Shown: positions 8,896 to 31,508 of the stretch, one piece after another
How the letters are laid out: each line of letters begins with the position of its first letter
How positions within the stretch are numbered: position 1 is the first letter of the stretch
Source: Nemertoderma westbladi
Lineage: Eukaryota > Animalia > Xenacoelomorpha
Reading direction: 5' to 3'
Assembly: GCA_032718475.1 (NCBI GenBank)
Contig: JAUCBJ010001950.1
Location: 1-51,755 of the forward strand
DNA: 51,755 bases
Made by a program: the position numbers and the translations under genes
Notes under the pieces: model-generated
What the model was told of the DNA's origin: nothing
What the model saw: only the letters and a program-made list of their open reading frames with translations
The model's database searches: none

Positions 8896-9890
8896 TCTGC
8901 CTGAATAGCCGACCGTTTCACGAACTCTCACCAGATTGTAACTGTACTTTCTGTGGGCTCTCTTGTGCCGACAGATTTGAAGTTCGCGCTTGTCCCAATA
9001 GTCGCTCGCTCGCTGAACTCACTCGTTAACAAAACTTTTTAATATTAATATTTTATTCATTTTTATAAACATACAATTTTAATTTACTCCGTGTATATCA
9101 TTATATTATATTAAAATCACCGCTTAAAAAAATTCAAAAAGTTGTCTGATGCTTTTATACAGGGTAGCTATTTACACACCCACAGAAATTTTCAGACTAA
9201 TTGCTCAAAAATTGTAGAAGTAGTAGGGTTTTGAAGTTGACAATTTCATAAAAAAAATATTTGGAGATAATCGACCTTTCATTATACATAGTAATAGTAA
9301 TTTCAATAGGACTCCCAAGTCTGCTCTTTTATTTTTATAACAGGTTATATTTAAAAATAAGGGCTCCAAGCTATAAATTCCATATATCAGGGGCGCCATT
9401 ACACAACAATATAAACAAATTTAATAAATGTATTAATTAGGGTGTTCTGTGGGACAGCGCAATATAACTAAAATTTATAAAAACTAGTGAGGCCTTCTCC
9501 ATTTCTTGGTCTAACTACATTTAACCAACGCAACAACGCCTTACTATCTTGCTCCAACTCCCCCAAAAGAGAAGGCCTAATTTCTTGTGATGATTCAATT
9601 TGCCCAAGTATTGAAACATAATGGTCTAACTGTCGATGTAAATAATCGTATTGATCGTAGCCGATTCAGTTTTCTGTTATGGGCCTACGACTACACTAAC
9701 ATATCAAACCCCGAAGCCGAAGGTCGATTGTAACTAAGTATTGTACATTTACATTGAAGGATTCATTATATCACAATAATCACAGAACCTAGCAACCAAT
9801 GACATATCCTCACTACCAGTGCAGTACGCAGTGGTATGTGAACTGAGGCTGGCTCCCTTGACCCCAAAGATTCAACGAAATAATAATAGC

Positions 9891-10569
9891 AGTAGTAAGA
9901 GTATGCCCATTTCGGCGACAGTTTAGTCCTACTTCACACCTTGGGTGTTAAGTAGGTCATTAATTAATTAAACAATTAATTAATTGGTCGATTAAACAAT
10001 TAATTAATTGTTTAATCAATCGATTTGTATCAAATAATGTTGCCAAAGGCAATTTAATTTGACACAAATCAATCAGATAGGGACGCGAGATGAATAAATT
10101 GTACTACAGCAAACGAAATATACAACACAATAGGCACTGTGCAATACAATATACAATACATTTGTATTATTTTTGCCATACAGTAGGTAAAGGTAGAATT
10201 AAATATAAAGACACGAACGGGACCCAAAACATAAATTACCCTTTCAAGAGAATAAAGTGGACCAGTTTGGCCCTGAGTCATCCCTCAATAATCTGTGGCT
10301 GCTTGGGCTCTTATTAGACGTAGCAAGATTAATCCCTTTGAATCCTATACTGTACGTCAACGCGTGGATGGGCCCTGCCACAGAGTTTAAATTATTCAAA
10401 CCTACAGCTTCGCTATTACATCAATTCGTCCGAGAAATTATAATAAACATCTGCTCTTGCAATAGATTGCATTCTTTCGCATCATACTTTATGAAGCAGT
10501 CCATGAGCATATTAGCTCAACGACAAAGCCATCACCCAAACACCATGTGTCAAATTAACCCCAACCTTC
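9891..10569 (+). repeat. Left terminal inverted repeat (~680 bp)
   Basis: Reverse complement of 25958-26635 with roughly ten visible differences. Confidence 0.95.
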
Positions 10570-10819
10570 TCTTTACTACAGTAGATACAGCAGTTTTTTT
10601 GTTTGAAGTAATTTCAGATGCTCTAGCGTAACATTAATTAACATACCCAGTCTGACGCAGCAACCCATTCATTACTCACACTTTTCTCCGGCGCACCCCC
10701 CGCTTCTCAATTCATCCCATTGCCCATCCTAACTAATGTTTTACATTTAATGAACCCAATGAAATGTGTTTATTATTCCCTCAACCCAATAGCGCGTCTC
10801 TCTCTCTCTCTTTTTTATT

Positions 10820-10880
10820 TCTATTGGTTCCCACAAGCTTCACTTTTATTTTCATTGGTTACCCTTTCCCTTATAAACCC
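10820..10880 (+). promoter_or_regulatory. Pol II-type promoter upstream of polB (two inverted CCAAT boxes plus TATAAA)
   Basis: ATTGG at 10823 and 10854, TATAAA at 10872; mirrored at 24735-24788 in front of the 570-aa ORF. Confidence 0.55.
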
Positions 10881-11073
10881 CCACCCATCGCTTTGAACTT
10901 TACTTACAAAAATATTATTGACAATTTTACTTTTTATTTAAAGTTATAATACATTTATTGTTATAAATAATATATTGTTGCAAACATTTATAACATCAAC
11001 GTGATTTGATTTTCCTTCTTATTATTCCTAATCGAGCAATTTTCTTTTTCCAATACCACGAATCAATCTGCAG

Positions 11074-11198
11074 GTAAGAACAATAAATTTGTATTTTTAT
11101 GAATTCGTTTAGTTTTAACATTATTGCCTCAAAATAAAAATCAACCCCACGAAACCTTCCCAAACTTATTATTATTATTTAGTTTTTTTATTTTATAG
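11074..11198 (+). other. Putative 5'-UTR intron of polB
   Basis: CAG|GTAAGA donor at 11074; T-rich tract ending TTTTATAG at 11198, five bases before the ATG at 11204. Confidence 0.55.
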
Positions 11199-11203
11199 CA
11201 AAC

Positions 11204-14200
11204 ATGCCTATGTCACCAAAATTTGTTGACTGTCCTGTCTGCAATAAGAACATGCGTAGTGACAATCTCAACAAACATCTCGCAACTCATTTTAAACAAT
11301 ATTCATGCGATTGTTGTGACACCTGGTCCTCCGATAAGAAAACTATGGTTAGCCATCTAGCGCTATGTACGCAAGGTGGGACTGGGTTCAGATTTATCAA
11401 CGAAGAAAACACTTGCAAGTGTGGCGAATCATTCACTTTATCAGCCTTTAAAGAACACGATTGCTATACGCGACTCTTCTCTCGGAAACGCAAACAATCT
11501 CAAGCGCTTTTGTCACCACCACCTCCACCAAACATTCAATCTCCAAGGGTTGGCCCTTCTACTTCAAGACAACAGACTGGAGGTTCGAGCAACAACCCAT
11601 TTTTACCACCCGTGAATAGCTCATCCCACAACCGCTTATTTACATATACAAACACGTTACTTACACCACAATTAGATGTGGAGTTAACACTTAGAGAAAA
11701 TGAAAGTAATATTTGGGATAGAGTGAGTCAACATTTTAATAATGAATTTAATTTTAAAAAAGTTTGGTTAACTATTTCTATCTTAATGGAAAGGGAGACA
11801 TCTGAGGGTACACAATTAGAAACCTTCAGTTTCAAATCAAATGCTTCAAATAATCAAATAACTTCTAATTTAGATTTTGAAAACTGGTTTTCGCAAACTA
11901 TCGAACGAATAGATGAATTAATAGCAGTCTTTGTTTGCATGGGCAGTGGTTGGAATATTGTTTCAATTAAAGAAATCAATTTACAAATTTCTACCTTCAA
12001 TCGCAACCCCTATTTAAAAGGACACGGTGATGGTTATATTCCTAAAATTTTAGCAAAGAAGCAGTGCATTATTAACTTAGATTGTCCCATTGGGGAATGT
12101 TTTAAGTACGCAGTAGTTGCCGCTGCTTGCTATAAAAAAATTGAAAGAAAGAAACAAAACATTAGTCGATTGTCAACATATACCCCATACATGGCCATGT
12201 TTGATTTCAGTACGATGAGTTTCCCAGTAGATAGAGTAGTAGGCATCCCACGTTTTTTAGAAACCAACCCTTTGTACTGCATTAATTTATTATTTTGGAG
12301 TACTGATAACATATTGAGCATTCTATCACAACCAGATTCAGAACATTGCTTCCAAAAAACTGTTTTAAATTTAATGTTTATAGAAGGTAATCAAAACAAT
12401 CCAGGACATTACTGCGCAATTGTCAACCTAAATAGACTTATTAATAAAACAGGACAAAAGAACAAATCAATTTGTGAGCGTTGTCTGAGAGCTTTTTATA
12501 CTAATAACTCATTGCAAACTCATCGGGAACTATGTTACACGAGCAAACGACAATTGGAACAAATGCCTACACCTGACAAATTAAAAATTAAATTCAATCG
12601 ATTAGATAAAACATTATCCCCTCCCTTTTGCATATATGCTGATATTGAAAGTGTTTTAGAACCTACATCAAACCCTAAATTAGTTCAAAAGCACATTGCT
12701 AGCGCCGCCGCATTTTATACAGTACCCAATCGCGAGCTAATAAACCCCCCACAAACATCATTACAAATGTTTAGAGACACTGGAACAAACCATGTTATAG
12801 ACGATTTTCTCACTGCTCTCGAATCACACTGTAGGGAATTATACGAGTGGACTATTTCTGGCACAAACACCAACGTTCCTAAACATTTGACTCGAGCACA
12901 GCAACAAAATTTTGATACTGCTACAAACTGTTACACTTGTAACTGTTCTCTAACACCCGATTCATATGGACTGAATCTAGCAGAAAATCTCAATACTAAA
13001 GTTTGTGACCACAACCATCTAACGGGAGCCTATCGTGGGGCGGCATGTGTTAGTTGTAACCGCAAACTTTCTCTTAAACGCAATAAATTTTATGTAGTGC
13101 TACACAACCTGAGGCATTACGATTCCCATTTAATATTAAAAGAAGGTCTGAAAAACAGTTCTAGAATTCATTGGAAGATAAAAGTAATTCCAAAGAACAC
13201 TGAGACTTATATCAATATAGAAATATCATTTCCTATAGACAAAACCATGCAGACAGCAAATGCAAAAGAAAGTATTGTCATCAATCTTCTAGACTCTCTA
13301 CAGTTCATGACAGCTAGTCTAGATAAGCTCAGTAGTTATCTTACTGCAAACAATTCTGATCTAACAAAAGCTATCCCACACACTTTGAAACAAATGAAAA
13401 ATCTTTATCCCAATATTAGCGATTCCACTATTAAAAATAAAGGTATATTTCCTTATAGCTATATACAATCCATAACAAACTTATACGAAACTCAATTACC
13501 ACAAATCGAGAGTTTCTATAATGATTTACAGCTTGAAGACTGTAGCGAGCATAACTATCAGAGTGCCCAAACTAGTTGGGTTGAGCTTCAATGTCAAAAC
13601 ATATTTGATTATATGATGGGATACTTGGCTCTAGATGTCACACTTCTCGCGGATACTTTCCAACAGTTTAGGGAACTATGTTTCTCCAATTATGGGTTAG
13701 ATCCTCTGCATTATTATACTTCACCAGGGTTAACGTACGATGCAGCATTGAAATTTACAAACAGTGAAATTGAACTACTATCTGATGGAACTATTTACGC
13801 AGATTTTGAAAATAATATTCGTGGAGGGCTTGTATTTCTGAATACACACTTAGAGGAAGCTAATATACCTGGCAAACCAGAATACAACCCCTGTAAACCA
13901 GAAAAATACCTAATTCCTCTCGATGCAAATAACCTTTATGGTTCTGCTCTCTCTCAGAAGCTCCCCTGCAGTAATATGAAAATCGTCGATACACCAATAG
14001 ATCTGGCTACAGTTGATGCCACTGGGTCAGTAGGATATTACTGCATCGTTGACCTCGAATATCCCCGAGAGATGACCGAGAAACTGCTGACCTACCACTA
14101 GGAGCGGAAAAAATGTCAATTCCCAAGAGCTTCCTCAGTACATACATGCAAGACCTCTGGCAACATTATAATCTCAATGATCAAGGGACCTATAAGCAAT

Positions 14201-15300
14201 ATAATGAGAAATATAGTAAACTGATTCTTCATCAATTCAAAAAAACTAATTATGGTATTCATATAAAATTACTCCAATTATACTTAAAATTAGGACTTCA
14301 AATAACACAGGTGCATAAAGTATACTCCTTCACTCAAAAATACATATTCAGAGACTATATCTCGTTTAATACATCCAAACGACAATCCGCTAAAAATGCA
14401 TTCGAAGTTTTATTTTATAAACTACTCAACAACTCACTCTATGGGAAAAGTCTTCAGAAGGTACGAGACCGGTTATCATTCCGACTCTGTACATCTCCAG
14501 AACAGTGTGACCTGCTATTATCAAAACCAAATCATGAGCGCTTCATCTCATTCTCCCCCTATCTCAGTGGTCACACTTTTACTAAAGAAGTAGCAGTACT
14601 CAATCAAGCTGTATTTATTGGGGCAACCATCTTAGATCTTTCAAAGCTAGAGATGTATGATTACTATTACTGTAAACTGAAACCTCTCGAAGAAAAGCTG
14701 AGATGTGAAATTCGAGCCTTAGCCGGGGACACGGACAGTTTCTTTCTTTCGGTTACCGGTGTTGAGCACAAAATATTCCTAGAAGCCATGTTTAACTCCG
14801 GCTTTCTAGACACTTCAAATTACGACCCCTCACACCCCCTCTTTACAAATCAAAACAAGGCTTCCTTAGGTTTTTTGAAAGATGAAAGTAGAGGTCTATT
14901 ATACAAATCATTTGTATTTTTAAAACCGAAAATGTATTCATTCGAGGCATACGACGCGCAACCAAAGCGGACTTGCAAAGGAATTTCAAAAAATATTGTA
15001 GCCAAGCAATTAACACATAAACACTATTTAGACTGCTTTATCAACGAATCAACAGATTACACAAACAATACAATATTTACTTCTAGGGAGCATCAAATGT
15101 TTACGGGGAGAATAAAAAAAAAAACATTAAGTCTCTGGGATACAAAATCATTCTGGATGACGAAATATTACAGTAGACCATATGGCCACTATATTACAGG
15201 ATTAACTAAACCAACAAAAAAAAACTGTAATACCACCTTATTTAGTTGCAGAATAAAATGCCATACAAAGCAAGCAGCGGATCAACACCAATTCAAATAA
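11204..15300 (+). pseudogene. polB: Protein-primed family B DNA polymerase (N-terminal Zn fingers, TP/vOTU-like region, EndoVII/HNH insertion), split by a 1-nt frameshift at ~14082
   Basis: ExoI YADIES, HNLRHYDSH, KGIFPY, DANNLYG, KLLNNSLYGK, GDTDS and KGI motifs; DHNHLTGAYRGAACVSCN insertion. Adding one A at GAGAAA restores EKTADLPLGAEKM and joins ORFs 11204-14101 and 14113-15300. Confidence 0.95.
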
Positions 15301-15782
15301 TCAATCGTCAATATACAGCTCAAACTGAATTTCCAATTGATATAATCAAAGTTTCTCAACAACTAAAAGGTCAGATGCGGCAAAAACCAAAAATGTTTGT
15401 GTATAAGACTGGATCTGCGACAATTATGCTATTCCCAACTGGTTCAATAACAATAGTGGGTCCATGTAAAAATGTTTGTAGTGATTTACTTTATCTGAAA
15501 CAATGTACCAACATACTAATTAAGAAAATTAAATTAAATACAGTGACCAGACTAATTAAGTTACCATCTCTTAATTTTAAATCATTAAGTAAAAAGTGTG
15601 GACATCATTTTGTAAACAATGTAAAGGTATATATTGATTTTACACCGGAGCTCTTTTGTGGAATTCGGTTGTATATTGGGCGATGTTATTTCAGTGTCTT
15701 TCACTCAATGAAAGTTATAAGTATGTGTCCTGTTGGTGATTTTGAAGAAGCTCTTATTATATTATTTAGTTTATTGAATTAA
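15258..15782 (+). CDS. Divergent TATA-binding protein (TBP)-fold protein, 174 aa
   Basis: Two TBP-like repeats: IQIINRQYTA..FPIDI, TIMLFPTGSITIVG (cf. LIFSSGKMVCTG), FTPELFCGI (cf. YEPELFPGL), SVFHSMKV (cf. IFVSGKV). ATG at 15258 overlaps the polB end. Confidence 0.75.
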   Translation: MPYKASSGSTPIQIINRQYTAQTEFPIDIIKVSQQLKGQMRQKPKMFVYKTGSATIMLFPTGSITIVGPCKNVCSDLLYLKQCTNILIKKIKLNTVTRLIKLPSLNFKSLSKKCGHHFVNNVKVYIDFTPELFCGIRLYIGRCYFSVFHSMKVISMCPVGDFEEALIILFSLLN

Positions 15783-16302
15783 TAAGTAAAATTATCTCTC
15801 AATATACTATATCATTATACTGTATATGTTTTTGTATTATTCAGGTGATTATATTATCTCTCAATATACTACATGTCATTATACTGTATGTGCGGTTTTA
15901 TATATTTATGTGATTATACTGTATGTGGTTCTATATATTCATGTAACATATATACTAATTATAGTTTTATTAAATTTAAGTAAAAAATATATTGATTTAT
16001 ATTATTAATAACATCTTACCTTGAGAACAATTCTCCCAATCTTTGCAAGTAATGGGGACCCACCTCTCCTCACCAAACCCTTCCCAAAAAGTCCGTAAGG
16101 CCAAGGTTTACTGCACTTGTTCTCCATTGGGTGATTAGTTGTTAAACTGGTGAATTCATTATATAAATTTAAATATTTACTAAAGCCGCTAGATGGCATG
16201 CATTTGTGACGCGAACATTAGTTTCATATTATACTGTATAAACGTTAAAAGTCAATTATTATTTTAATAGATATAATAATAATTGTATTATAAAAGGAAA
16301 AC

Positions 16303-16857
16303 ATGATGGATATAGTAGATATGTTATTAAATAGGAAATTGATCTTTAACGAAACCCCAAACAGTATTACTTGGTTTTATGGACAGACGAAACCAATAAT
16401 TAAAGGGGTTAATATTACCGCTTTAAATGAAATTCCAGAACACTTTAATGAAAATGTGAAAAACCATTCTATCATTATAATCGACGATTTGATGGCAGAA
16501 CTACAAAATTCCAAACAAGCGACTACGCTATTTACTAAAGTAGCTCGACATACAAATTCATTGGTAATTTTTCTCACTCAAAACCTTTATCAAAAAGGAG
16601 GAGAATCTAGGACCCGTTCCATTAATTCCACATATTTCTTATTGTTCAAAAATCCGAGGGATCAGACACAGATAAGAACTTTAGCCTATCAGATGAAACC
16701 AAATACACCCAAATTCTTAATCGCGGCATTTCAAGACGCAACAAAGGTTCCCTTTAACCCACTTCTTATTGATTTTCATCAATTAACGAATGATAGCCTA
16801 CGTATACGTGGGTATTTATTTACAAATGAACATTGTGTTAATCAACCCGTGTCGTAA
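16303..16857 (+). CDS. FtsK/A32-like packaging ATPase, apparently lacking Walker A
   Basis: Walker B IIIIDDLM, ARH, IFLTQNL and FKNPRD motifs; an in-frame TAA at 16291 lies where GxxGxGKT is expected. Confidence 0.88.
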   Translation: MMDIVDMLLNRKLIFNETPNSITWFYGQTKPIIKGVNITALNEIPEHFNENVKNHSIIIIDDLMAELQNSKQATTLFTKVARHTNSLVIFLTQNLYQKGGESRTRSINSTYFLLFKNPRDQTQIRTLAYQMKPNTPKFLIAAFQDATKVPFNPLLIDFHQLTNDSLRIRGYLFTNEHCVNQPVS

Positions 16858-16971
16858 TATACGTAGAAGAATGCTTCTATTAGCAATTGTCTGTTATTTA
16901 GTTATATTATACTTATTTGTGGTTTATCATCGACAAAGGTTTCTTAAATTTCTTAATATTATAGAACAAGT

Positions 16972-17313
16972 ATGGAACTTAATATACGAAAGTATAGGAA
17001 AGAACTAGAATTTTTGAAAAATAGCAACGCGTTAGCGCGGGGAGCATTTATTCGAAAAAAAGCTAGTAGCGAATTAATACGACTTCTCGTTAATATTACA
17101 CTGAATACGCTCTATGGGAATATAAATATTGATGGAAAGATTGTTAAAAAATTGAAGCCATATAAGAAATATATGAGGCGATTGAAATCGAAAAATTCAG
17201 TTTCACTTCAAAGACATTCTCTCTCTCAGGCTGGGGGGTTCCTTCCACTTATTTTGCCACTGTTGATAGGCGCCACAAACATTGCCACAACTGTTGCCAC
17301 AGCGTTAACATAG
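16972..17313 (+). CDS. Polinton basic virion protein with adenovirus pX-like hydrophobic tail
   Basis: Basic helical N-part, then QAGG|FLPLILPLLIGA, resembling the protease-site plus hydrophobic tail of adenovirus pX (GGILPLLIPLI). Confidence 0.75.
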   Translation: MELNIRKYRKELEFLKNSNALARGAFIRKKASSELIRLLVNITLNTLYGNINIDGKIVKKLKPYKKYMRRLKSKNSVSLQRHSLSQAGGFLPLILPLLIGATNIATTVATALT

Positions 17314-17315
17314 CC

Positions 17316-17438
17316 ATGTCATTCAAGAAACTATATTTAATAACCCCCGAACAACATGCTAGGTTGCAACCAACACAGTTGAAAACTAAACCTTTAATTA
17401 AAGAAAAAAGAAAAAAGGTCAAAATAAACGGACAATAA
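17316..17438 (+). CDS. Small basic ORF (MSFKKLYLITPEQ...), possibly frameshifted in an A-run
   Basis: ATG 2 nt after the preceding stop; 40 aa, Lys-rich; a basic frame continues to ~17497 in another frame. Confidence 0.35.
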   Translation: MSFKKLYLITPEQHARLQPTQLKTKPLIKEKRKKVKINGQ

Positions 17439-17566
17439 ACGATAGAAGAAAAGTGTTGAAACTGTTTGATTATACGCGCCGCAAATCGCGAAAATAATGT
17501 CTTGGTTAAAAAAACTTTCAGTAACTTGCAATTTTCGTTGTCTATGCAATTCTAGCAGTGTTACCT

Positions 17567-18637
17567 ATGGTTATGATCAACAAGATGGTAGAAAAACGCT
17601 TAGCCAAAGCTTACTACAATCCTTCAAGTGTTGCAGGGTTTTCCACTGTAGGAAAGCTAGCAAAAGAGACGGGAGTCAATCCAAAACTCGTGAAAAGATG
17701 GCTTCAAAGTCAGCCGACCTATACATTGCATGCCCCAGCGAGGCGTCTGTTTCCCACAAGCCGAATGTATTTTTATGGAATTAGTGACACCATTCAGGCA
17801 GATTTAATAGATATGCAAAAATATCGCGCAACAAACTCAGGTTATGGATATATTCTAACCGCAATCAACTGTTTTAGTAAGAAGGGGTGGGCATTACCAT
17901 TGAAACGGAAGACTGGTATTGAAATTAAACATGCAATACAGTCTATTTTTACTGAAGAAGTACCACGTAATTTATGTACAGATCAAGGGTTGGAATTCGA
18001 TAATAAAGTTGTACTCAATTACTTGAAAATGAAAAAAGTTAAATATTATACAACACGATCGCAGTTCAAAGCAGCCATTTGCGAAAGGTATAATAGAACG
18101 TTAAAGACAAAGATGTATAAAATTTTTAGTAGAAGAGGCAACCATAAGTGGCTTGCTATTCTACCAAAAATTGTATACTCTTATAATAATTCTATACATA
18201 GATCTATTGGAATACCCCCAATTCAAGTCAATAAGTCGAATGAAGATAACGTGAGAAGAAAACTCTATGGAAATTTAGCTAAAATCATTGTAACAAAACC
18301 CAAATTGAGAATAGGTGACAATGTGCGACTTAATATAGCTAAAACGGCGTTTGAAAAAGGTTATACAAAAAATTGGACCGGTGAGGTGTTTACTGTAAAA
18401 CGTATAAGACTAGATCGTTTTCCTCAGCCTATGTATCATATAATAGATTCAGTTGATAGAGAAATAGAAGGAACATTTTACCCTCACGAATTGCAAAAGG
18501 TTACACAAACAACTGATATTCAGCCAATCGAGTCCATTTTGAAGTCTCGAATAAAAAATGGTCGGAAGGAATTCCTTGTAAAATTTAAAAACTATAAACG
18601 GAACTCTTGGTTGAACGAGTCCCAACTACGTAAATAA
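17567..18637 (+). CDS. int: Retroviral-like DDE integrase with C-terminal chromodomain
   Basis: YYNP..GF, YTLH, IQAD, TDQGLEF, ERYNRTLK and HRSIG motifs; chromo-like IESILKSR..GRKEFLVKF..NSW. The start may be ATG 17585. Confidence 0.95.
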   Translation: MVMINKMVEKRLAKAYYNPSSVAGFSTVGKLAKETGVNPKLVKRWLQSQPTYTLHAPARRLFPTSRMYFYGISDTIQADLIDMQKYRATNSGYGYILTAINCFSKKGWALPLKRKTGIEIKHAIQSIFTEEVPRNLCTDQGLEFDNKVVLNYLKMKKVKYYTTRSQFKAAICERYNRTLKTKMYKIFSRRGNHKWLAILPKIVYSYNNSIHRSIGIPPIQVNKSNEDNVRRKLYGNLAKIIVTKPKLRIGDNVRLNIAKTAFEKGYTKNWTGEVFTVKRIRLDRFPQPMYHIIDSVDREIEGTFYPHELQKVTQTTDIQPIESILKSRIKNGRKEFLVKFKNYKRNSWLNESQLRK

Positions 18638-18647
18638 ATCAACAAAA

Positions 18648-19475
18648 ATGAATAACTATATAACTTTATTCTCAAATGGACCTACAAACAAATTTCCTAA
18701 TAACACCCTTTCGAAATTTACGGTTGATCTACCATATACAATCAATTTCAGTGGTAATGTAGAAGTGGGACTATCTGAAATTCAATACTGTTCCTCATTC
18801 TATAATATACGTCAACAATCTCTGTTTACAATTTATTATGGAGATAGGTCATCGCAAGTTGTTATATTTGAAGCAGGACTATATACGAGTGTAAAAGCCA
18901 TTATTAATAAAATCAATCAACAAATTGATCACCCGAAGTGGCCCCAAATTCAATATTTCAAATACTCAAATAAAATCGAGCTCGCTACTTCGCAACACTT
19001 TTCTTTTGAAATTACTGGAGATTTGATTACAATACTCGGTTTTGAGGAGTTTATGCAGGATTATGATCCGAGGGATGTACCTTATCTAGCTAATTGGTAT
19101 GATTATTGGAGTGTAAATGTTAGTGAATTTGGCTCTTTAACATTCAAACAGCAACCGGGCCAGCGTGCTCAATTTAGAGGGATTTGTCCCTTTTCTTGCG
19201 ATTTAGTCTTAGGGCGACATAATTTGTTTATCTATAGTGACATTACTTCTCATGTGACTGTAGGAAATATGACAGCACCGTTATTACGCACGGTACCTCT
19301 CGAACTTGAGCATAATAAAGTTATAACGCGCGAATTTAAAAAAATTTATTACAGACCAGTTGCTAGAACAGTTGTTAATCAGATAAATATTGAATTACGC
19401 AACGAAAAAGGAGAACTAATATTATTTAATGGAGGTGCAACAATAATTACCCTACACTTAAAAAGTAAGCCATAA
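18648..19475 (+). CDS. Minor capsid protein (penton) 1
   Basis: YITLFSN..FPNNT.SKF.V.LP..EVGLSEI N-terminal motif; FIYSDI..VG..PLLR..Y.PV..I.I.L C-terminal motif typical of Polinton pentons. Confidence 0.85.
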   Translation: MNNYITLFSNGPTNKFPNNTLSKFTVDLPYTINFSGNVEVGLSEIQYCSSFYNIRQQSLFTIYYGDRSSQVVIFEAGLYTSVKAIINKINQQIDHPKWPQIQYFKYSNKIELATSQHFSFEITGDLITILGFEEFMQDYDPRDVPYLANWYDYWSVNVSEFGSLTFKQQPGQRAQFRGICPFSCDLVLGRHNLFIYSDITSHVTVGNMTAPLLRTVPLELEHNKVITREFKKIYYRPVARTVVNQINIELRNEKGELILFNGGATIITLHLKSKP

Positions 19476-20269
19476 TGGAGAAAATATTATATTTACCCTC
19501 AAATTCTTCGCCTAAACGATTTCCGTTAAACCAACCTTCTAACTTTAATGTGGAACTATCTGAACCATTGCGTTTTAGTGGAAAGTGGATGGTGGGTCTG
19601 TCAGAAATTGTTTACCTCTCCTCGGTTCATAATTTAGAAGATACATTCATTTATATTCGGAGTTTACAAGGAACTAAAAGAAAATATATAAAGCCATCTG
19701 GTTGCTATACTGATGTGGAGGCGTTGCTTACACAGCTAAATATAGATGGTCTCAATTCCCATTTAGAAATAAGACAAAATGAGCTTTATGACAACATTAG
19801 TATTCAGTTTATCGACGAAAGTAAAGTTGTTCGTTTTTATGGAAATAAGTTGATTGAGTTACTTGGATTGCGGGGATTAGAAAATGAGTATTATGTTAAT
19901 AAAAATAAATTTCTTGTTAGCCTAAAAAATGATTATCTACAAATAACGCGAAGGGGGGAAATAGAGGGTGATTCTGATATATTACATATTCAAAAAGCAG
20001 CAAATGTTTTTATGGGAAACATTAGTATATTTTCAAATATTTGCGGAAATGAGATTGTTGGAAATCAACTGAAACCCCTCTTAAGATCTATTCCTTATCA
20101 AGGAGATTATGGTAAGCTTGTTCATCATGAATTCACAAATATTAATTATAAATCCAATGATATGCAAAATATAGAAACAATAAATATACAGTTAAAAAAT
20201 GATCGAGATGAATTCATAAAGTTTAATAATGGTACTGTAATTGCGACATTAATTTTGAAACGCCAATAA
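19475..20269 (+). CDS. Minor capsid protein (penton) 2, tandem paralog
   Basis: Same N-terminal (LPSN..FP.N..S.F.V.L..VGLSEI) and C-terminal (VG..PLLR..I.I.L.N..F..G) motifs; TAATG stop/start overlap. Confidence 0.85.
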   Translation: MEKILYLPSNSSPKRFPLNQPSNFNVELSEPLRFSGKWMVGLSEIVYLSSVHNLEDTFIYIRSLQGTKRKYIKPSGCYTDVEALLTQLNIDGLNSHLEIRQNELYDNISIQFIDESKVVRFYGNKLIELLGLRGLENEYYVNKNKFLVSLKNDYLQITRRGEIEGDSDILHIQKAANVFMGNISIFSNICGNEIVGNQLKPLLRSIPYQGDYGKLVHHEFTNINYKSNDMQNIETINIQLKNDRDEFIKFNNGTVIATLILKRQ

Positions 20270-20300
20270 ACGATAAATAAGGAAATATATTCAGGAAGCA

Positions 20301-20909
20301 ATGAGTTATAAAGATTATTATCAAAGGAGTTTGTAGAAAACATTACAGAGAACACTTTATAAGGTTATTCGCGGTGGTGTTAAAAATAAACAGACTGGGA
20401 CGATGAAGGGTCTCAGCTCAGAAATTGTTACACCCCCTTCCATAATGAGGCAACGATTACAATTATTAGAATGGAAACGAAAGGCGGGGGGAGGACTACC
20501 TTATTTTGAGGGGGGATATAGACATCGACACATGAACAGTCGCACAGTTTTTGTGAGACACGGTCAACGAGGTAAAGGTATCCTTGGAAATATTATTCGG
20601 ATTGCAACTAAAGTAGTGCCCAAAGTTATTAAGCCCGTCGCGCGAGCAGAAATTCGCAAAAGTGCTCCTTTTGTAAAAAAGACAGGGAGAAAAATTGTCA
20701 GACGAGTAATTCGTCGGGGAATTCCACAACTTAAAAAGATTGGAAAGAAATTAGCAGAACAGGCTCTCGCCAGCTCAAAACCTTCCACTAAACGAGTAGC
20801 TCATAAAATTATTGAAGAAGTTTTAAATGCTGCTGATGGGAGGTCAATAAACGAAACTCGCAAAAAACGCAAATCAAAAAAGCATCACTGTCCAGATATT
20901 TTTGGATAA
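20301..20909 (+). pseudogene. Basic core (pVII-like) protein with a premature TAG at 20334
   Basis: In-frame MSYKDYYQRSL*KTL..IRGG.. continues into ORF 20403-20909, with GGGLPYF, QRGKG, an Arg/Lys-rich body and a DIFG end. Confidence 0.65.
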
Positions 20910-20923
20910 ACTAAATAATAACA

Positions 20924-22174
20924 ATGGAAGAAACCACAGAAGAACTAAATTTATTTAATCGCAATAATGTTCAGACTGTAATTGAAGAAAGTTTTGAGCA
21001 GGAAATATACCCTGTGACTACATTGGGAGAGGGCACATCAGTTATAGATTTCATGATTGAAAAGTCAGAAGATTACTATATGATAGGAAATGAAACAACA
21101 CTACAATTAGTATATCGTGTTGTAACAACAACACGACCTGACAATGGCGCAGTTTATCAAACACCACTAAGCCTCTCTACTCTATTTTAAAACATTAGTG
21201 TTTTGATTAATGAGCGGGAGGTAGAGTCTAATACTGCAAACTATCCCTATAAAGCTTTCCTAAAAGCGGTCTTACTTAACGATCAGAGCACAAAAGAAAC
21301 GATTTTAGCTGCCGAAGGGTTTGCAGAACAAGAAGCATTTGGTGTTCCTGTAGACTTTGCTGCAGCTGCTCATTTGGAAAGTAAACCATATTATGTTCAG
21401 GGGTCTCTATTTGTTGACCTTTTTGAACAGGCTAAATTTATCCCACCCAAAACTAGTATAAGAATTAGATTAACAAGAGCTACAAATGCGTTTAACTTAG
21501 TATGTATTGCAGCTGTACAAGAGCCTCGAATCAATATATCTAATGCTTTGTTGAAAATTAAACGAGTAAAATTGGATCCATATATACGTCAACAACATAT
21601 AGAACAATTAAAAATAGGAGATTATATTTATCCAATTATACAGAATGAGGTGACAACCTTTACTATAGCAAATGGTCAACAATCTCATGTGAGGGAAAAT
21701 TTGTTTACAAGCAAGAATGTACCTCGCTTTGTTAATATTGTCATGGTTCGAAATGACTCTTACAATGGAAACTTAAGATCTAATTCACTATTGTTTGATC
21801 ACTTTAATGTGAATTACTTACAACTTACGCTGGATGGTAAGGTAATTGGAGGTGTGACATATAAACCAAATTTTGCTACTGGACAATATATTAATGAGTA
21901 TTGCGCCAGTCAAAAAAACCTGCTATCTATAACCAGAGGTACAAACAACGGCATTACTCCCACTAGATTTCGTGATTTATATCCAATATTTTCTTGGAAT
22001 TTATCCCCCATGGGATTTCTTGATGAAGACGAACGAAACCCACATCAAATAGGCAATGCTAGATTAGAGATTGCTTTCTCAGCTCCTTTACAAAATACAA
22101 TTAACGTTATTATGTGGGTGGGATATGATAGAACTGTGAATATCAGCAATGTCGGATCAGTAACTATTTTCTAG
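20924..22174 (+). pseudogene. Major capsid protein (double jelly-roll) with an in-frame TAA at 21188
   Basis: ELNLF..VQT..IYP, TLF*..INE..NYPYKA, LF.Q.K.IP..I.I.L.R, F.HFNV and G..RLEI.F..PL motifs. Both ORFs are in the same frame (~416 codons). Confidence 0.9.
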
Positions 22175-22184
22175 AAAGAAAAAC

Positions 22185-22613
22185 ATGTTGAACTCATATG
22201 ATTTGAATAATTTCCCTATAGGAGAACATTATCGTGGTTCTTTCGCCATTGATCAATTACCAGCGAAGGACGGCGCTAAAATGAGCTTCATTTCAAATAC
22301 TCAAGCCGCTCATTTACCTGGTATGCACTGGGTTGCTGTTTTTATGAATGAAAATATAGGTGAATACTTTGATTCATTTGGAGTGTTCCCCCCGGCTCGT
22401 ATAGAAGACTGGTTGTTGCGTAATACAATAAAATGGACAAGGACACGAAAAGTGGTTCAACATCCTCTAAGGACAAGTTGTGGGGGATACTGTTTATATT
22501 ACTTATCTGAACGATCAAAAACTGACACGCCTCTACGCAAGTTTGGAACAGACTTGAAACAAAATGAAAAGATACTTGCATGTTGGTTGCGGAACAAAGA
22601 CATAATGAATTGA
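22185..22613 (+). CDS. Adenain-like cysteine maturation protease
   Basis: Catalytic motifs GMHWVA, YFDSFG and Q....CGGYCLY. Confidence 0.93.
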   Translation: MLNSYDLNNFPIGEHYRGSFAIDQLPAKDGAKMSFISNTQAAHLPGMHWVAVFMNENIGEYFDSFGVFPPARIEDWLLRNTIKWTRTRKVVQHPLRTSCGGYCLYYLSERSKTDTPLRKFGTDLKQNEKILACWLRNKDIMN

Positions 22614-22910
22614 TATTATTAATTGTGTTACAATGTGTTATATCTTATGTGTTACAATGTGTTATATCTTAAATGTTACTCTGCTATATGTATATGTGTT
22701 ATGTTATAAATATATATTTCAATGTTGCTATATTAAAAATATGAAAATAGTCGACTATATTTCATTTTTCTTTTTTCAACTTTGGATAAATAATATAGGG
22801 GTTAAACAAAGAACATCAAAACAGTTAAACAGTTACATTTAACATTTAGACAGTAAACAGTAACAGTAAACATTTACATGACCAGTTACAATAGACAAGT
22901 AACATAAAGT

Positions 22911-24623
22911 TTAGTTTATATCCACAGCATCTAGCTTTATCTTTTTCTGTTCTATTGGAGGATAGTGAGCTAATTTTCGTTTTAAAATTTCCATCGAATA
23001 TCTTTTAGAGACGTTGGGGGAATCATTAGGGTGAAATAGATTGAGGTGGATCTGCTTGGGGAGGAAAACTACATCTTTTAGTGTGCGTTTGAGAAAGTTG
23101 ATGCAACACTCAACAGCATAGTTTGAAGGTAGGGTTAATTTGTTTGTTGTCTTCAGGCTGACAATAATTGTTTCTGATGGTGTATGTTGAATGTGTATAA
23201 GGGGAGTGAGATAGTAATGGGAGGAAGTGGATTGTTGAATGAGATGAAAGTTGGAGAAATCACTCGCTTTTATATTTAAACCATCGGTAAACTGAAACGT
23301 AGTTGATTTCAAATCTTTTTTGATGACAGGCCATATGGCAACATAAGCTTCACCTTTGAATGAATAAATGAAAGCCGCTACTGATTCGTATAAATTAAGA
23401 CACTGGTGATTAGGTAGTTGTAGTTGCTTTGGTTCATAATCACTATTGTTAGCCAATGACTTTAGTTCAGAGAGTGCTTCTCGGGCGCGATCTGTATTGT
23501 CAATAGAGAACATGTAGTCATAGCGTCTGTCAGAAATTTCGAGGGTTTCGCAGCTGTAAGAGGTATAAATTTTTATTCGATCAGAAATTAATTCTTCGTG
23601 GTTGACTTCATCGTAGCATTCGTATCCTTCGACCGCAGAATCGAACCATGAAATTTTAAGAAGTTCATTTCTCGTGAGTAAAAGTGCATCTCTTGTGGAA
23701 ACAATAACTTTGTTTGAATCAACCTCAACTCCGCTCGCGATTGCAATGTTTCTTTTATTATTAATATTTGTGATATAACCAAAAGTAGAACTATCGAAAG
23801 AAACATAGTTCTCTGGCTCTAAGACAATGTGCGAGATTGGATTGATGTAAGGACGACAAATGTTTATATAATGTTGTAGTAAAGCAGCCGCAGTGTCTGA
23901 GATGGTTAACCAACCCCCATCTACTGTATCTTCTAGTTGTATTAAATCAATAGGTTTCAGTGGGGATGTTTTCGAATAACGAACAACTTTAAAATTAAAA
24001 CCAAAATAATGTGCTTTGCTGTTGTTGTAGAAACAGGTTATTTCATTCAATTGTTCAATAAAAGTTAGTACGTCATATCCAAACAGTTTGAAGAAACGAG
24101 ATTCATCTTTGAGGGGGTGAATCGAGGTGTTCCAAATAATTAAAAGAATTGAGTTTGAAATATTATGAAAATCAAACAGACACTCATCAACAAAAAAGGA
24201 AGCTTTGAGTGTTGACATACCAAGGAGCTTGTTTGCAGATTCTTGTGTTACATTGCTGTGGATATATTCAACAACCGGTTGAGGTATTACAAATGTTTCT
24301 AACGAGGTTGTCAGATTGAACGTTATATTCGATTCTGATTTGTGCAGTTTGAAACCATGGTTTGCGGAATGAAATTTATCATTATTTAGAGTTTGATATT
24401 GACCATCCTTCAACTCAAAGCAGGATCGTAGAATGAAATGTGCATAATTTGCTGGAATGAGTTGGGGTTGGTTAGATGAAGTGGTAACCGTCATTGGAAA
24501 GCGTTTGTTCGAAGGATCAAAATATAAACCGAAAGAGTTGTCTGAGAGAGATATTTGATTTTCGTTGGAAACAATTTTTACTTGAGGGAAGTTGAACTTT
24601 TGAAGGAGTTGAGCTTGAGCCAT
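22911..24623 (-). CDS. 570-aa hypothetical protein; possible PC4-like ssDNA-binding module(s) and C-terminal NLS
   Basis: Long intact ORF; AFIYSFKGEAYVAIW...GLNIK resembles PC4 (VRDFKGKVLIDIR..GISL); KRK..KKIK tail. Confidence 0.7.
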   Translation of the reverse strand: MAQAQLLQKFNFPQVKIVSNENQISLSDNSFGLYFDPSNKRFPMTVTTSSNQPQLIPANYAHFILRSCFELKDGQYQTLNNDKFHSANHGFKLHKSESNITFNLTTSLETFVIPQPVVEYIHSNVTQESANKLLGMSTLKASFFVDECLFDFHNISNSILLIIWNTSIHPLKDESRFFKLFGYDVLTFIEQLNEITCFYNNSKAHYFGFNFKVVRYSKTSPLKPIDLIQLEDTVDGGWLTISDTAAALLQHYINICRPYINPISHIVLEPENYVSFDSSTFGYITNINNKRNIAIASGVEVDSNKVIVSTRDALLLTRNELLKISWFDSAVEGYECYDEVNHEELISDRIKIYTSYSCETLEISDRRYDYMFSIDNTDRAREALSELKSLANNSDYEPKQLQLPNHQCLNLYESVAAFIYSFKGEAYVAIWPVIKKDLKSTTFQFTDGLNIKASDFSNFHLIQQSTSSHYYLTPLIHIQHTPSETIIVSLKTTNKLTLPSNYAVECCINFLKRTLKDVVFLPKQIHLNLFHPNDSPNVSKRYSMEILKRKLAHYPPIEQKKIKLDAVDIN

Positions 24624-24646
24624 CGTGAAGAAAATATAATATTATG

Positions 24647-25400
24647 TATAACAATAAATGTATTATAACTTTAAATAAAAAGTAAAATGGTCAATAATAT
24701 TTTTGTAAGTAAAGTTCAAAGCGTTGGATGGGGGTTTATAAGGGAAAGGGTAACCAATGAAATAAAAGTGAAGCTTGTGGGAACCAATAGAAATAAAAAG
24801 AGAGAGAGAGAGATGCGCTATTGGATTGAGGGAATAATAAACACATTTCATTGGGTTCATTAAATGTAAAACATTAGTTAGGATGGGAAATGGGATGAAT
24901 TGAGAAGCGGGGAGAGCGTTGGAGAAAAGTGTATGTAATGAATGGACTGGGTATGTTAATTAATGTTACGCTAGAGTATCCGAACAAATATTTTAGGCCT
25001 GGTATGCGTGAGGGGTTATGCATTTTTTCAAACAATAAAACTGCAGTATCTACTGTAGAGAAGGTTGGGGTTAATTTGACACATGGCGTTTGGGTATTGG
25101 CTTTGTCGTTGAGCTAATATGCGCGTGGACTGCTTCGCAACACAATGCGAAAGAATGCAATCTATTGCAAGAGCAGATGTTTATTATAATTTCTCTGGCG
25201 AATTGACAATGGTTTGCATGATAGCGAAGCTGTAGGTTTGAATAATTTAAACTCTGTGGCAGGCCCCATCCACGCGTTGACGTACAGTATAGGATTCGAT
25301 GTTTGGGTTAGTCATGCTACGGCTAATAAGAGCCCATTTTATTTTCTTGAAAGGGTAATTTATGTTTTGGGCCCCGATCGTGTCTTTATATTTCATTCTA
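24647..25400 (-). repeat. Inner, more diverged inverted copy of left-end 10194-10965 (includes the promoter)
   Basis: Reverse-complement match to the left end; its 25060-25400 part is also a direct repeat of 25958-26332. Confidence 0.92.
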
Positions 25401-25618
25401 GAGTATAACTCAACGTGGGATTCCGTGGGATGCTTAATCCTTCACGCATGCCATACCAAAAACTATGGTTCTGTTTGAAATGTTAAGGTGGACCTTTCTA
25501 TATAAATAAAACCATGTAAAGTTAGATCATTATCTCTAAAAAATATTAAGTGAGGTTTTTCAAAGTTTTTTTTAAAAAAGTAAATCTTAATAAATTTTGT
25601 CTTTTGTCTTTTGTTACT

Positions 25619-25867
25619 ATGGAATATTTTATATGTCCGTATGATGCCAAACACCGAATTCATTCAGAAAAATATGTCAAGCATTTAAGAAAATGTCGTA
25701 AGAACTTTTCCAATCAAAAAATGGTTCAGTGTCCTTTTGAAGCCGCACACAGCTTTAGAGAAGCTGAAAAGGACCACCATCTACGGTTTTGCGAATATAG
25801 GAACAGGAACTCAATTTTTCAGATATTAAAAGAAGAGAAAAAAGAAGAGAAAAAAGAAAAAAAGTAG
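25619..25867 (+). CDS. GTSF1: GTSF1/Asterix-like tandem CHHC (U11-48K-type) zinc-finger protein, 82 aa
   Basis: CPYDAKHRIHSEKYVKHLRKCRKN and CPFEAAHSFREAEKDHHLRFC match the CPx4H-x9-H-x3-C pair of GTSF1 (CPYDKNH..HLIKCRKN; CPFNARH..HISSC); TATATAAA at 25499. Confidence 0.85.
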   Translation: MEYFICPYDAKHRIHSEKYVKHLRKCRKNFSNQKMVQCPFEAAHSFREAEKDHHLRFCEYRNRNSIFQILKEEKKEEKKEKK

Positions 25868-25957
25868 AGAAGAAAGGAGAATGTTCGATGGCGTGGGGAG
25901 AAGAGGTGTGGGATTGATGTTGGTATGCGCGAGAAAAACTACAGTAACTAGTATAGG

Positions 25958-26635
25958 GAAGGTTGGGGTTAATTTGACACATGGTGTTTGGGTGATGGCT
26001 TTGTCGTTGAGCTAATATGCGCGTGGACTGCTTCATAAAGTATGATGCGAAAGAATGCAATCTATTGCAAGAGCAGATGTTTATTATAATTTCTCGGACG
26101 AATTGATGTAATAGCGAAGCTGTAGGTTTGAATAATTTAAACTCTGTGGCGGGGCCCATCCACGCGTTGACGTACAGTATAGGATTCAAAGGGATTAATC
26201 TTGCTACGTCTAATAAGAGCCCAACGACCGCAGATTGTTGAGGGATGACTCAGGGCCAAACTGGTCCACTTTATTCTCTTGAAAGGGTAATTTATGTTTT
26301 GGGTCCCGTTCGTGTCTTTATATTTAATTCTACCTTTACCTACTGTATGGCAAAAATAATACAAATGTATTGTATATTGTATTGCACAATGCCTATTGTG
26401 TTGTATATTTTGTTTGCTGTAGTACAATTTATTCATCTCGCGTCCCTATCTGATTGATTTGTGTCAAATTAAATTGCCTTTGGCAACATTATTTGATACA
26501 AATCGATTGATTAAACAATTAATTAATTGTTTAATCGACCAATTAATTAATTGTTTAATTAATTAATGACCTACTTAACACCCAAGGTGTGAAGTAGGAC
26601 TAAACTGTCGCCGTAATGGGCATACTCTTACTACT
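25958..26635 (-). repeat. Right terminal inverted repeat
   Basis: Reverse complement of 9891-10569; ends CTTACTACT followed by the TSD. Confidence 0.95.
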
Positions 26636-26641
26636 AATAGC

Positions 26642-27874: not shown

Positions 27875-29852
27875 AAGCATTGAATACTTGAATAGGAAGG
27901 TAATAATAGACTATACCAAATATAGATAAATGTTAAGTCGGATTATAAAATGTACCGCGAGAGGGGTGGGGGGGGGGGGGGGGGGGGGGGGTTAAAATCA
28001 ACAAAAAAATATCACAGCTGAAAAATACAGTTTTGCTCTGATATAATTTTGTATACAAAATGCATAACATCTAAAAAAACTAACCTACTGTAAACTAAAA
28101 ATAAGGTAAGAAGCCACTTTTCTTCATTTTAATAAATACTCGGGAAAAATAGGAATTAAAGGCAAGTAAATAAAGTGAAGTAAAGTACAATTATCGATAC
28201 ACAGTAAATGTAACAACCCAAGTAATTTGTCTTCAATAAATAAAATATAACCAAATCAAATCTGGAAGTGTTCCTATATTTTTATCGGTATACCATCCGA
28301 TAGACAGAGCTATAAAACAGTCTCCTGTCCTTAAAACTAATGATTTATTGTTTTCCTAAAATACTATAGTTAGCGAAAAAATAAGGGAAAAGATTAGGAA
28401 AATGAAAGAAGAAGAAATACTGAAATGGTATTTTATATTTTGTAAAATGCTGCTGCCCTGATACCGAAATCTTTCCAAGAGAATGTACAACGACTACACA
28501 CTGTTAGCATAAAAAATCAAAATCACGATTATAAATAATTACAACATAGGGTTCGATGCTTGTAAAAATTCACAATTAAATTCACTGTAAAATAAAAAAC
28601 AGGCAAATTTGATAAAATATTAACAGCCGTAAAGTACAATAAAAGGCTATTGAAAATATTCTGTATAAATGCATTTATTTAATATAGAACATGAATATCG
28701 AGTTTGTGAATAATTGGAGTGATTGAAAATGAATTGTGAAATTCACCACTGTGTGGGTGTAACTGTAACAAACGATTATTTGTGCCAATGTGATATAAAA
28801 CAACGAGCTTGTGCAATAAATATTAATTAAACTAATTATATCGTCCAAAGACAGTTAGCTACTTGAACCACGAAAACTGTATTGTAATTCAATAATACAA
28901 CTCTGTAATAACAGGTTTTAAGTTAAGTTAAGTGATCAATGATTAATTGCCAATAACTAGAGTTTCTGAGAATATAATTTTTTTTAATACATTCTAATTT
29001 TGATATTCGAATATTTATACAAATCATCTTATAATATATGATAATTAGTAATTAATATATTATTGTTATGAAAATTATGACAATTTTAGAATGATGAAAT
29101 ACGGTAATTACTTTTTTTTGCATTAAATCGTTAATTTTAGCAGCGGTTTGTTAGAATATTCGAATATTTTGAGCTAACTTACTATTCTCAGATAAATTAA
29201 CAAATAATCAACATGACTTTCTTCTACATTATTGTTGCTAAACCCTAATTTTGCTTTCGTTAAAAATTTATAAAAAAATGTAAAAAAATAACAATGTAAG
29301 TTTGTACAATTAATTTCCAATTGCCGTAGCCTATTTATAAGGAATCAACGCAGTTAATACTTAGTAGTTTAGATACCAACCAAAGCAAGATATGTAAGTA
29401 TTTTATTGTTAAAAAAACTCGAGATTTATCTAAATATAAAAACAGTAAATAACTAGAAATACAAAAAATATTTGCTATAGAGTAACATCTAGAATCTAGA
29501 TAAACCAAAAAACATACAAATACGAAATATACAAAGTATAACGGTGCCGGAATGTAGTTTAGTTAGTGTCAATAACGGTACCGGAATGTAGTTTAGTTAG
29601 TGTCAATAACGTTAATGGAATGTCAGAAGGAGGAATGTTTTAAGGATAAATTATTCCAAAAAATAATAGGATAACTTTTAAAGAAATTTCAAACCGGAAG
29701 TCACTAAGTATTCAGTTATTATAGTTTCATATTAGAATTCACAATTATTATGAAACTTTTATTGTAAAACTTAATAGAGAGAGGAAAACAGTCCGTTCGC
29801 ACTAATAGCAAAAATTGTTTACATATAACTCAGTCAGTTCCAGCAATTTATA

Positions 29853-31508
29853 AGTACTAGTACTTATAAATCAGTGAGTTCCAACCCGCGATCAGTACTA
29901 GTCTAGTACCTATAACTCAGTGAGTTCCACCCCGCGATCAGTACTAGTACTTATAAATCAGTGAGTTCCAACCCGCGATCAGTACTAGTACCTATAACTC
30001 CGTGAGTTCCACCCCGCGATCAGTACTAGTACTTATAAATCAGTGAGTTCCAACCCGCGATCAGTACTAGTACCTATAACTCAGTGAGTCCCAGCCACAG
30101 ATCAGTACTAGTACCTATAACTCCGTGAGTTCCACCCCGCGATCAGTACTAGTACCTATAACTCAGTAAGTTCCAACCCGCGATCAGTACTAGTACCTAT
30201 AAATCAGTGAGTTCCAACCCGCGATCAGTACTAGTACCTATAACTCCGTGAGTTCCACCCCGCGATCAGTACTAGTACTTATAAATCAGTGAGTTCCAAC
30301 CCGCGATCAGTACTAGTACTTATAAATCAGTGAGTTCCAACCCGCGATCAGTACTAGTACCTATAACTCAGTGAGTTCCAACCCGCGATCAGTACTAGTA
30401 CCTATAACTCAGTGAGTCCCAGCCACAGATCAGTACTAGTACCTATAACTCCGTGAGTTCCAACCCGCGATCAGCACTAGTACCTATAACTCCATGAGTT
30501 CCAGCCCGCGATCAGTACTAGTACCTATAACTCCGTGAGTTCCAGCCCGCGATCAGTACTAGTACCTATAACTCCGTGAGTTCCAGCCCGCGATCAGTAC
30601 TAGTACCTATAACTCCGTGAGTTCCAGCCCGCGATCAGTACTAGTACCTATAACTCCGTGAGTTCCAGCCCGCGATCAGTACTAGTACCTATAACTCCGT
30701 GAGTTCCAGCCCGCGATCAGTACTAGTACCTATAACTCCGTGAGTTCCAACCCGCGATCAGTACTAGTACCTATAACTCAGTGAGTTCCAACCAGCGATC
30801 AGTACTAGTACCTATAACTCCGTGAGTTCCAACCCGCGATCAGTACTAGTACCTATAACTCAGTGAGTTCCAACCCGCGATCAGTACTAGTACCTATAAC
30901 TCAGTGAGTCCCAGCCACAGATCAGTACTAGTACCTATAACTCCGTGAGTTCCAACCCGCGATCAGCACTAGTACCTATAACTCCGTGAGTTCCAGCCCG
31001 CGATCAGTACTAGTACCTATAACTCCGTGAGTTCCAGCCCGCGATCAGTACTAGTACCTATAACTCCGTGAGTTCCAGCCCGCGATCAGTACTAGTACCT
31101 ATAACTCCGTGAGTTCCAGCCCGCGATCAGTACTAGTACCTATAACTCCGTGAGTTCCAGCCCGCGATCAGTACTAGTACCTATAACTCCGTGAGTTCCA
31201 GCCCGCGATCAGTACTAGTACCTATAACTCCGTGAGTTCCAACCCGCGATCAGTACTAGTACCTATAACTCAGTGAGTTCCAACCCGCGATCACTACTAG
31301 TGCCTATAACTCAGTGAGTTCCAACCCGCGATCAGTACTAGTACCTATAACTCCGTGAGTTCCAGCCCGCGATCAGTACTAGTACCTATAACTCCGTGAG
31401 TTCCAACCCGCGATCAGTACTAGTACCTATAACTCAGTGAGTTCCAACCCGCGATCACTACTAGTACCTATAACTCAGTGAGTTCCAGCCCGCGATCAGT
31501 ACTAGTAC
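29853..31508. repeat. 41-bp tandem array, ~40 copies, derived from the final codons and stop of the LIM gene
   Basis: Unit TATAACTC(A/C)GTGAGTTCCA(A/G)CCCGCGATCAGTACTAGTACC; the rightmost unit encodes TSTDRGLELTEL* on minus. Confidence 0.97.

Follow-up and report, generated by a model that had tools for sequence, protein, structure and literature searches.

A selected GTSF1-like gene in a Polinton family of Nemertoderma westbladi: a candidate element-encoded modulator of PIWI

A Polinton family has captured a gene of the GTSF1 type, and this capture is real, family-wide and under selection. The gene was found in a stretch of 51,755 nucleotides of Nemertoderma westbladi DNA (contig JAUCBJ010001950.1; the whole stretch is called the window below), where it lies within the right terminal repeat of a complete element. 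We regard it as a strong candidate for an element-encoded PIWI modulator. That it is a competitive PIWI-binding antagonist, a GTSF1 mimic that would blunt piRNA silencing, we put at even chances, and the direction of the effect, to block or to activate, is a prediction by analogy with characterized GTSF proteins.

Results

The Polinton that carries the gene

9891-26635, no strand assigned: complete Polinton/Maverick of 16.7 kb with AGTAGT...ACTACT ends, flanked by AATAGC as 6-bp target duplication
9891-10973, + strand: left terminal inverted repeat (TIR), ~1.08 kb
11204-15300, + strand: protein-primed PolB gene, PF03175 above cut-off, in two frames in the window copy
17567-18637, + strand: Polinton-type integrase with chromodomain (rve and Chromo)
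20924-22613, + strand: likely major capsid protein, without profile match, and adenain-like protease (Peptidase_C5, weak, E 0.0058)

The element has the long TIRs, the AG...CT ends and the 6-bp target duplication (9885-9890 and 26636-26641) of Polintons/Mavericks, and these ends enclose the cassette described below, in agreement with the original prediction that the gene is carried by a Polinton. The gene set of this class, consisting of protein-primed PolB, integrase, ATPase, protease and capsid, is present as well, with the capsid genes assigned from position and the usual gene order. The integrase has 1056 relatives at E<=1e-30, mostly with rve plus Chromo, and the ATPase match was weak (E 0.008 in the profile search). 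From position and the usual Polinton gene order, the major capsid protein is presumably encoded within 20924-22613, together with the protease. We take a tandem pair of ORFs at 18648-20269 (+ strand; 275 and 264 aa), with similar ends and no profile match, to be likely duplicates of a minor capsid (penton-like) gene. The window copy is partly decayed: PolB is in two frames with a break around 14053-14101, the likely capsid gene contains an in-frame stop at 21188-21190, and no Walker A motif was seen by eye upstream of the ATPase ORF. Positions 15790-16290, the expected site of the ATPase 5' part, are AT-rich and contain no long open frame.

Directly 3' of PolB, a 174-aa ORF (15258-15782, + strand) has a weak match to TATA-binding protein (PF00352, E 0.0012, below cut-off) and a poor single-sequence fold (pLDDT 48.9); a TBP-like gene in a Polinton would merit attention. 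An intact 570-aa ORF (22911-24623, - strand), which starts 16 nt inside the inner right TIR, had no match in either Pfam or the Atlas. A 1407-nt contig of sequencing run X5 lies over this ORF and ends at 24651; the run, which is not on record as RNA, includes neither the single-copy flank nor a near-identical piece of the cassette, and such missing cover proves nothing. Host exons near the element match LIM, PDZ and DUF4757, a set that we take to be the LMO7 layout.

The captured gene belongs to the GTSF1 family by similarity

25619-25867, + strand: 82-aa ORF, the 5' part of a GTSF1-like gene with an early end in the window copy
25634-25696, + strand: CHHC finger 1 (C6, H12, H22, C26) with basic residues K18, K25 and K28
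25730-25792, + strand: CHHC finger 2 (C38, H44, H54, C58), more variable between copies

The ORF of 82 aa with two CHHC fingers had been predicted from the DNA, and both features were recovered: HMMER detected PF05253 twice (E 7.6e-12, 45.3 bits against a cut-off of 21.1), and all eight CHHC ligands are invariant in an alignment of 47 sequences. By similarity, the gene belongs to the GTSF1 family rather than to U11-48K/TRM13. Its best PDB matches were mouse and silkworm GTSF1, aligned over both fingers with 47.9 and 40.8 bits; U11-48K matched over one finger with 20.4 bits. The predicted structure (pLDDT 81.8) retrieved the same two GTSF1 proteins as the top two Foldseek hits. In another comparison, a TRM13 cluster appeared at rank 23 (score 0.85). 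Among the best 150 of 509 homologues from a HMMER search, all contained PF05253 and none the TRM13 family, and the named relatives were GTSF1 or GTSF1-like. U11-48K and TRM13 are characterized by a single CHHC finger in a larger protein, spliceosomal in the one case and a methyltransferase in the other, whereas this gene encodes the two tandem N-terminal fingers of GTSF1 and no other domain. The original preference for GTSF1 is thus upheld by PDB, Foldseek and homologue similarity, and by these measures of similarity the feared grouping with TRM13 or U11-48K is absent. The nearest library proteins share about 28-47% identity with the ORF, and a word-based protein search with it gave no matches among 65 candidates. 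A degenerate DNA pattern for finger 1, which fits 125 of the 150 listed homologues, matched the window only at 25634-25696 and none of 100 shuffles.

Mouse R26/R29/K36/K39, the RNA-binding basic positions of finger 1, correspond to H15/K18/K25/K28. The basic KCRK surface had been described as kept. Three of the four RNA-binding positions are indeed basic, so that full function of the protein is conceivable; the fourth, H15, is a position that is basic in just 31% of the family. In the ORF, E occupies residue 41, at which 83% of the family have N. In a tree of 166 finger domains, the gene formed a long branch that grouped with two amphioxus proteins and with unnamed compact forms (support 0.77 and 0.66), a placement too uncertain to name a donor.

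A tryptophan motif lies in another frame of the window copy

25827-25864, + strand: A-rich run, the probable site of the frame break
25891-25917, + strand: GTSF1 tail motif AWGEEVWD (25891-25914) followed by a stop, in another frame

The absence of Trp and the end soon after finger 2, both noted in the original prediction, are true of the 82-aa translation, but the acidic aromatic PIWI-binding motif that follows finger 2 in GTSF1 is present in the DNA, in another frame of a broken copy. This second frame is open from 25801 to 25917 and ends with MAWGEEVWD and a stop. A motif matrix was derived from the 150 listed homologues, 115 of which have a tail of at least 45 residues after the finger pair; 101 gave a first Trp in the searched range, and 71 of these 101 tails contain [ED]-x-W-[DE]. 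AWGEEVWD ranked first among all 64,829 six-frame 8-mers of the window (14.2 bits, next 12.0) and was the sole one with [ED][ED]-x-W-[DE]; leave-one-out scores of the homologues' own motifs had a median of 17.4 and quartiles of 10.6-20.0. The motif Trp follows the last Cys by about 39 codons (family median 39) and aligns, via a homologue, with mouse W107 and silkworm W103. W98, W107 and W112 were reported to mediate PIWI binding (10.1101/2021.05.04.442675). Compared with the PDB by itself, the Trp-frame stretch retrieved no GTSF1, just low-scoring unrelated matches.

We infer that the window copy was frameshifted within the A-rich run, by mutation or by assembly error. The ORF had been called intact; its frame is broken, and both contigs that bridge the run in other copies carry a gap. 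Together with the Trp motif in the other frame, this gap marks the KEEK tail and the early stop as features of a broken copy, and the apparent lack of Trp in the window ORF as a consequence of the break. The motif, its spacing and the frame of the bridging contigs point to a gene of ~99 aa that encodes an RNA-binding as well as a PIWI-binding module. In the unbroken family product, a charged linker likely connects the two CHHC fingers with an E-E-x-W-D motif at the C-terminus. In 87 homologues, a median of 149 residues follows the motif and six of the 87 end within 5 residues of it. The putative product is likely cut directly after the Trp motif, without the C-terminal region; trimming would thus have occurred downstream of the motif, and not before the Trp as first proposed.

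The cassette splits the right terminal repeat

24639-25400, no strand assigned: older, inner part of the right TIR, whose segments differ from the left TIR by 4.2% and 6.7% substitutions
25401-25934, + strand: GTSF cassette, bordered on each side by a directly repeated TIR segment (25037-25400 and 25935-26332)
25499-25505, + strand: TATA box TATATAA
25527-25531, + strand: initiator-like TCATT ~30 nt 3' of the TATA box, imperfect and identified by eye
25935-26635, no strand assigned: current right TIR on the outer side, which over 25949-26635 differs from the left TIR by 1.7% substitutions

The right TIR consists of an inner copy, the cassette and an outer copy, with a TIR segment of ~360-400 bp repeated directly on both sides of the cassette. 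The outer copy is closer to the left TIR than the inner parts are. The gene appears to have entered the TIR first; the left TIR then served as template for a new end, while the inner part drifted. The TATA box attributed to the gene is indeed present at 25499; none of nine other element ORFs tested had a TATA match within 160 nt. GC3 of the fingers (0.32) falls among the values for element genes (0.24-0.34), unlike that of two host exons (0.52 and 0.67), which suggests a long residence of the gene in the element.

Diverged copies show purifying selection

Three DNA-type runs from two studies, under one organism label, contain the cassette; X1 and X2 stem from one sample, which may be the source of the window. 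Copies were viewed via short contigs, with 25 pieces among the matches listed and at least 93 further ones. In run X3, positions 25686-25737 are covered by five gap-free contigs, each with 6 to 19 differences, so that at least five diverged haplotypes are present in one run. Summed contig depth over the ORF was 33-45 times that of the single-copy flank in X1-X3, which is in line with tens of copies and is no copy number as such. Of the 25 listed pieces, 23 are free of gaps at up to 20% divergence. Two bridge the A-rich run and have one gap each relative to the window; their lengths indicate that fingers and Trp motif probably share one frame in other copies, although the two contigs may represent one haplotype group and the gap site is deduced. 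Contigs identical to the window cover parts of the fingers (25682-25769 and 25756-25818); among the contigs listed, these identical ones do not extend across the A-rich run.

Several observations concern the tail. Summed contig depth over the motif was 6-17 times that just past the stop. In the Trp frame only, a tail substitution among those listed is synonymous and a 9-nt indel respects codon boundaries; each of these signs is weak when taken singly. One contig, with 20% divergence in the fingers, drops out of alignment across the linker and aligns again from 25890, at the motif. One bridging contig runs past the stop into TIR sequence at 26000, and several loose ends look TIR-like by eye, so that at least some haplotypes reside in Polinton ends; the most diverged haplotypes could be host paralogues, as TIR linkage was seen for some haplotypes only.

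Selection was assessed on 38 variants upstream of the break, each classed singly, from 40 of 57 variant rows. Twenty-two were synonymous, 16 were not and none created a stop, and 24 fell at third positions. The expected synonymous share is 24% (binomial p 1.1e-5, ratio about 0.23). These values come from counted sites rather than from a codon model, and the variants are not independent since they are shared between runs. The other two frames gave 5 and 3 synonymous variants. One haplotype alters the finger-2 ligand H44. The GTSF1-like gene is under purifying selection across the family; diverged, gap-free copies and the synonymous excess speak against the concern that it might occur in a single, neutrally decaying copy.

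A more diverged GTSF-like paralogue was seen in X3 and X5, with 36 of 45 bases alike at 25652-25696 and flanks like finger 1; it could be a host gene or belong to another element family. A further GTSF-like variant appeared as loose ends at 25682 and 25695.

Other carriers and previous reports

IMG/VR yielded no element or virus with the gene when queried with the 82-aa ORF, the compact homologue P0080, the homologue alignment or the finger-1 DNA pattern. The integrase had no close locus there, so IMG/VR says little about animal Polintons. BFVD gave no structure at E<=0.001, and one metagenome scan returned three weak loci, L001 being a bacterial chance match and L002 and L003 matches of 21 residues. 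Unnamed compact GTSF-like proteins in the library (P0033, P0080, P0015, P0121, P0144, P0081 and P0019; 105-133 aa) end at an acidic Trp motif; some are encoded on contigs of 9-50 kb, and some might be element-borne. P0079 combines CHHC fingers with a reverse transcriptase domain and probably reflects a gene model fused with a LINE.

A literature search whose coverage excluded most subscription journals and Repbase found, among the papers listed, no report of an element- or virus-encoded GTSF, in accordance with the original remark of not being aware of one for Polintons. Polinton and GTSF1 occurred together only in a review that mentions each separately. The words piRNA and zinc finger are absent from the main texts of three Polinton papers, among them PMC8502044 and PMC11131425; the supplements could list such a gene.

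Discussion

The Polinton gene shares with mouse GTSF1 (PDB 6x46) and silkworm Gtsf1 (SIWI-GTSF1-Maelstrom, PDB 9nhb/9nhc) the tandem CHHC fingers, the basic ridge of finger 1 and the acidic Trp motif, which lies 35-39 residues after finger 2. It differs from GTSF1/Asterix by its location in a mobile element, by a coding stretch in which no intron was seen and by its end at the motif. We tentatively propose, at slightly less than even chances, that the protein is an antagonist of the piRNA effector step, acting as a minimal GTSF1 mimic that would sit on target-engaged PIWI via its Trp motif and prevent activation. From known GTSF1 biology, finger 1 would be expected to bind an RNA duplex and the Trp motif to bind PIWI or a Tudor partner, and the element protein might dock on target-engaged host PIWI in place of host GTSF1. 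Because it would lack the long C-terminal region from which host GTSF1 derives its PIWI specificity, the site could be occupied while slicing and co-factor recruitment are not licensed, and piRNA silencing of the element would be blunted.

C-terminal differences were reported to set the PIWI specificity of GTSF proteins. GTSF2 and GTSF1L bind MILI (PMC9539491) and are described as stimulating it little or not at all, and silkworm Gtsf1 is reported not to stimulate MIWI. An anchoring competitor is favored by the conservation of both modules, the end directly after the Trp, the role of the C-terminus in specificity and the existence of paralogues that bind and barely activate. An anti-piRNA action is thus a plausible putative function. 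Against antagonism speak the compact cellular forms, several library proteins of 105-133 aa ending at the motif as well. Moreover, a broad block of the piRNA pathway is expected to harm host fertility (PMC6719617), and with it the element itself.

Such a cost would not arise if the protein instead activates host PIWI as a working cofactor, an explanation that we consider unlikely, yet the most serious alternative. The closest parallel is silkworm Gtsf1L, a partner of Ago3 and Vreteno; the conserved Trp of its 39-aa tail, W99, binds Ago3 and the Vreteno Tudor domain (PMC10711660). Judged by its description, Gtsf1L has the same layout of two fingers and a short Trp tail and nearly the same size as the Polinton protein, but it is a host gene that supports piRNA biogenesis (PMC10711660). 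Retention of both functional modules would suit a cofactor, and the element could gain if competitors or helper viruses were silenced, if its own damage to the germline were limited, or if ping-pong were retuned via a Tudor partner. However, the paralogue in X3 and X5 makes it very probable that the host has GTSF genes of its own, so that any gain to the element would be indirect, and finger 2 deviates from the family consensus.

A PIWI-independent role, in which the fingers bind structured RNA such as tRNA or element transcripts, or another partner, in the service of the element cycle, seems improbable. GTSF1 does bind tRNA (PMC9539491), and nematode GTSF-1 has been rewired to RRF-3 (PMC13650160). 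From the rewired nematode proteins, however, both the aromatic residues and the basic surface have disappeared, whereas the Polinton gene keeps the two, and the motif is common to copies up to its stop.

Capture of piRNA-pathway sequence by transposons has a precedent in TART-type elements of Drosophila, where telomeric elements repeatedly acquired fragments of nxf2, piwi and aub for which a counter-defence function was proposed (PMC7785250, PMC13534243). These fragments act as sources of piRNAs, and by the same logic the captured sequence could yield piRNAs that silence a host GTSF gene; the 36 of 45 bases shared between finger 1 and the paralogue piece in X5 would fit. We nevertheless consider an action at the RNA level very unlikely in the Polinton, a DNA virus-like element that carries a whole gene with promoter and no mere fragment, with constraint on amino acids, free third positions and element-like GC3.

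Two further readings deserve hardly any credence. The 82-aa protein as real product, a dominant-negative RNA-binding decoy devoid of the PIWI-binding Trp as first suggested, fits the window copy as it reads and the window-identical contigs over the finger parts, but it conflicts with the gap in both bridging contigs, with a top-scoring motif at the expected distance that recurs widely in cassette copies, and with a window copy whose PolB and likely capsid genes are disrupted too. That the gene is passive cargo, a host sequence gained without benefit during repair of the element end, agrees with host cargo genes in Polintons (Widen et al. 2023 via PMC11131425) and with the rearrangement that the duplicated TIR segment records at the cassette end, but is largely refuted by purifying selection, by fingers without frameshift in 23 pieces up to 20% diverged and by element-like codon composition.

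Element-encoded accessory proteins that were proposed or shown to act against host silencing are represented by the VANC proteins of Arabidopsis VANDAL elements, which differ in being sequence-specific, in acting on plant DNA methylation and in not being copies of a silencing cofactor (PMC6719617). Polintons and adintoviruses are known to carry other host-like accessory genes, such as PLA2X, gasdermin-like genes and, in nematodes, protease and kinase cargo (PMC8502044, PMC11131425), and Polinton insertions rearranged nematode eri-6/7 (PMC11414722). A 2019 review states that protein-based counter-defence of animal transposons or endogenous viruses against piRNAs had not been described. If antagonism is true, the Polinton would provide a case of protein-level piRNA counter-defence by an animal transposon or endogenous virus, of which our searches found none since that review. 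An element-borne and selected GTSF1 is a concrete and small candidate PIWI modulator, and either outcome would be telling: PIWI would have an inhibitor of natural origin, or the host would receive a silencing cofactor from a mobile element. The compact gene also shows which parts of GTSF1 may form a minimal PIWI-engaging unit.

Additional features of the window

A BEL/Pao-like retrotransposon region is present in two inverted copies (1-4414 and 42510-48627) that are 93-97% alike, with a DUF1759 gag at 45373-48627. Tandem arrays of 33-bp units (7449-9030) and 41-bp units (29780-31400) comprise ~40 copies each, and the 33-bp array contains long open frames on both strands.
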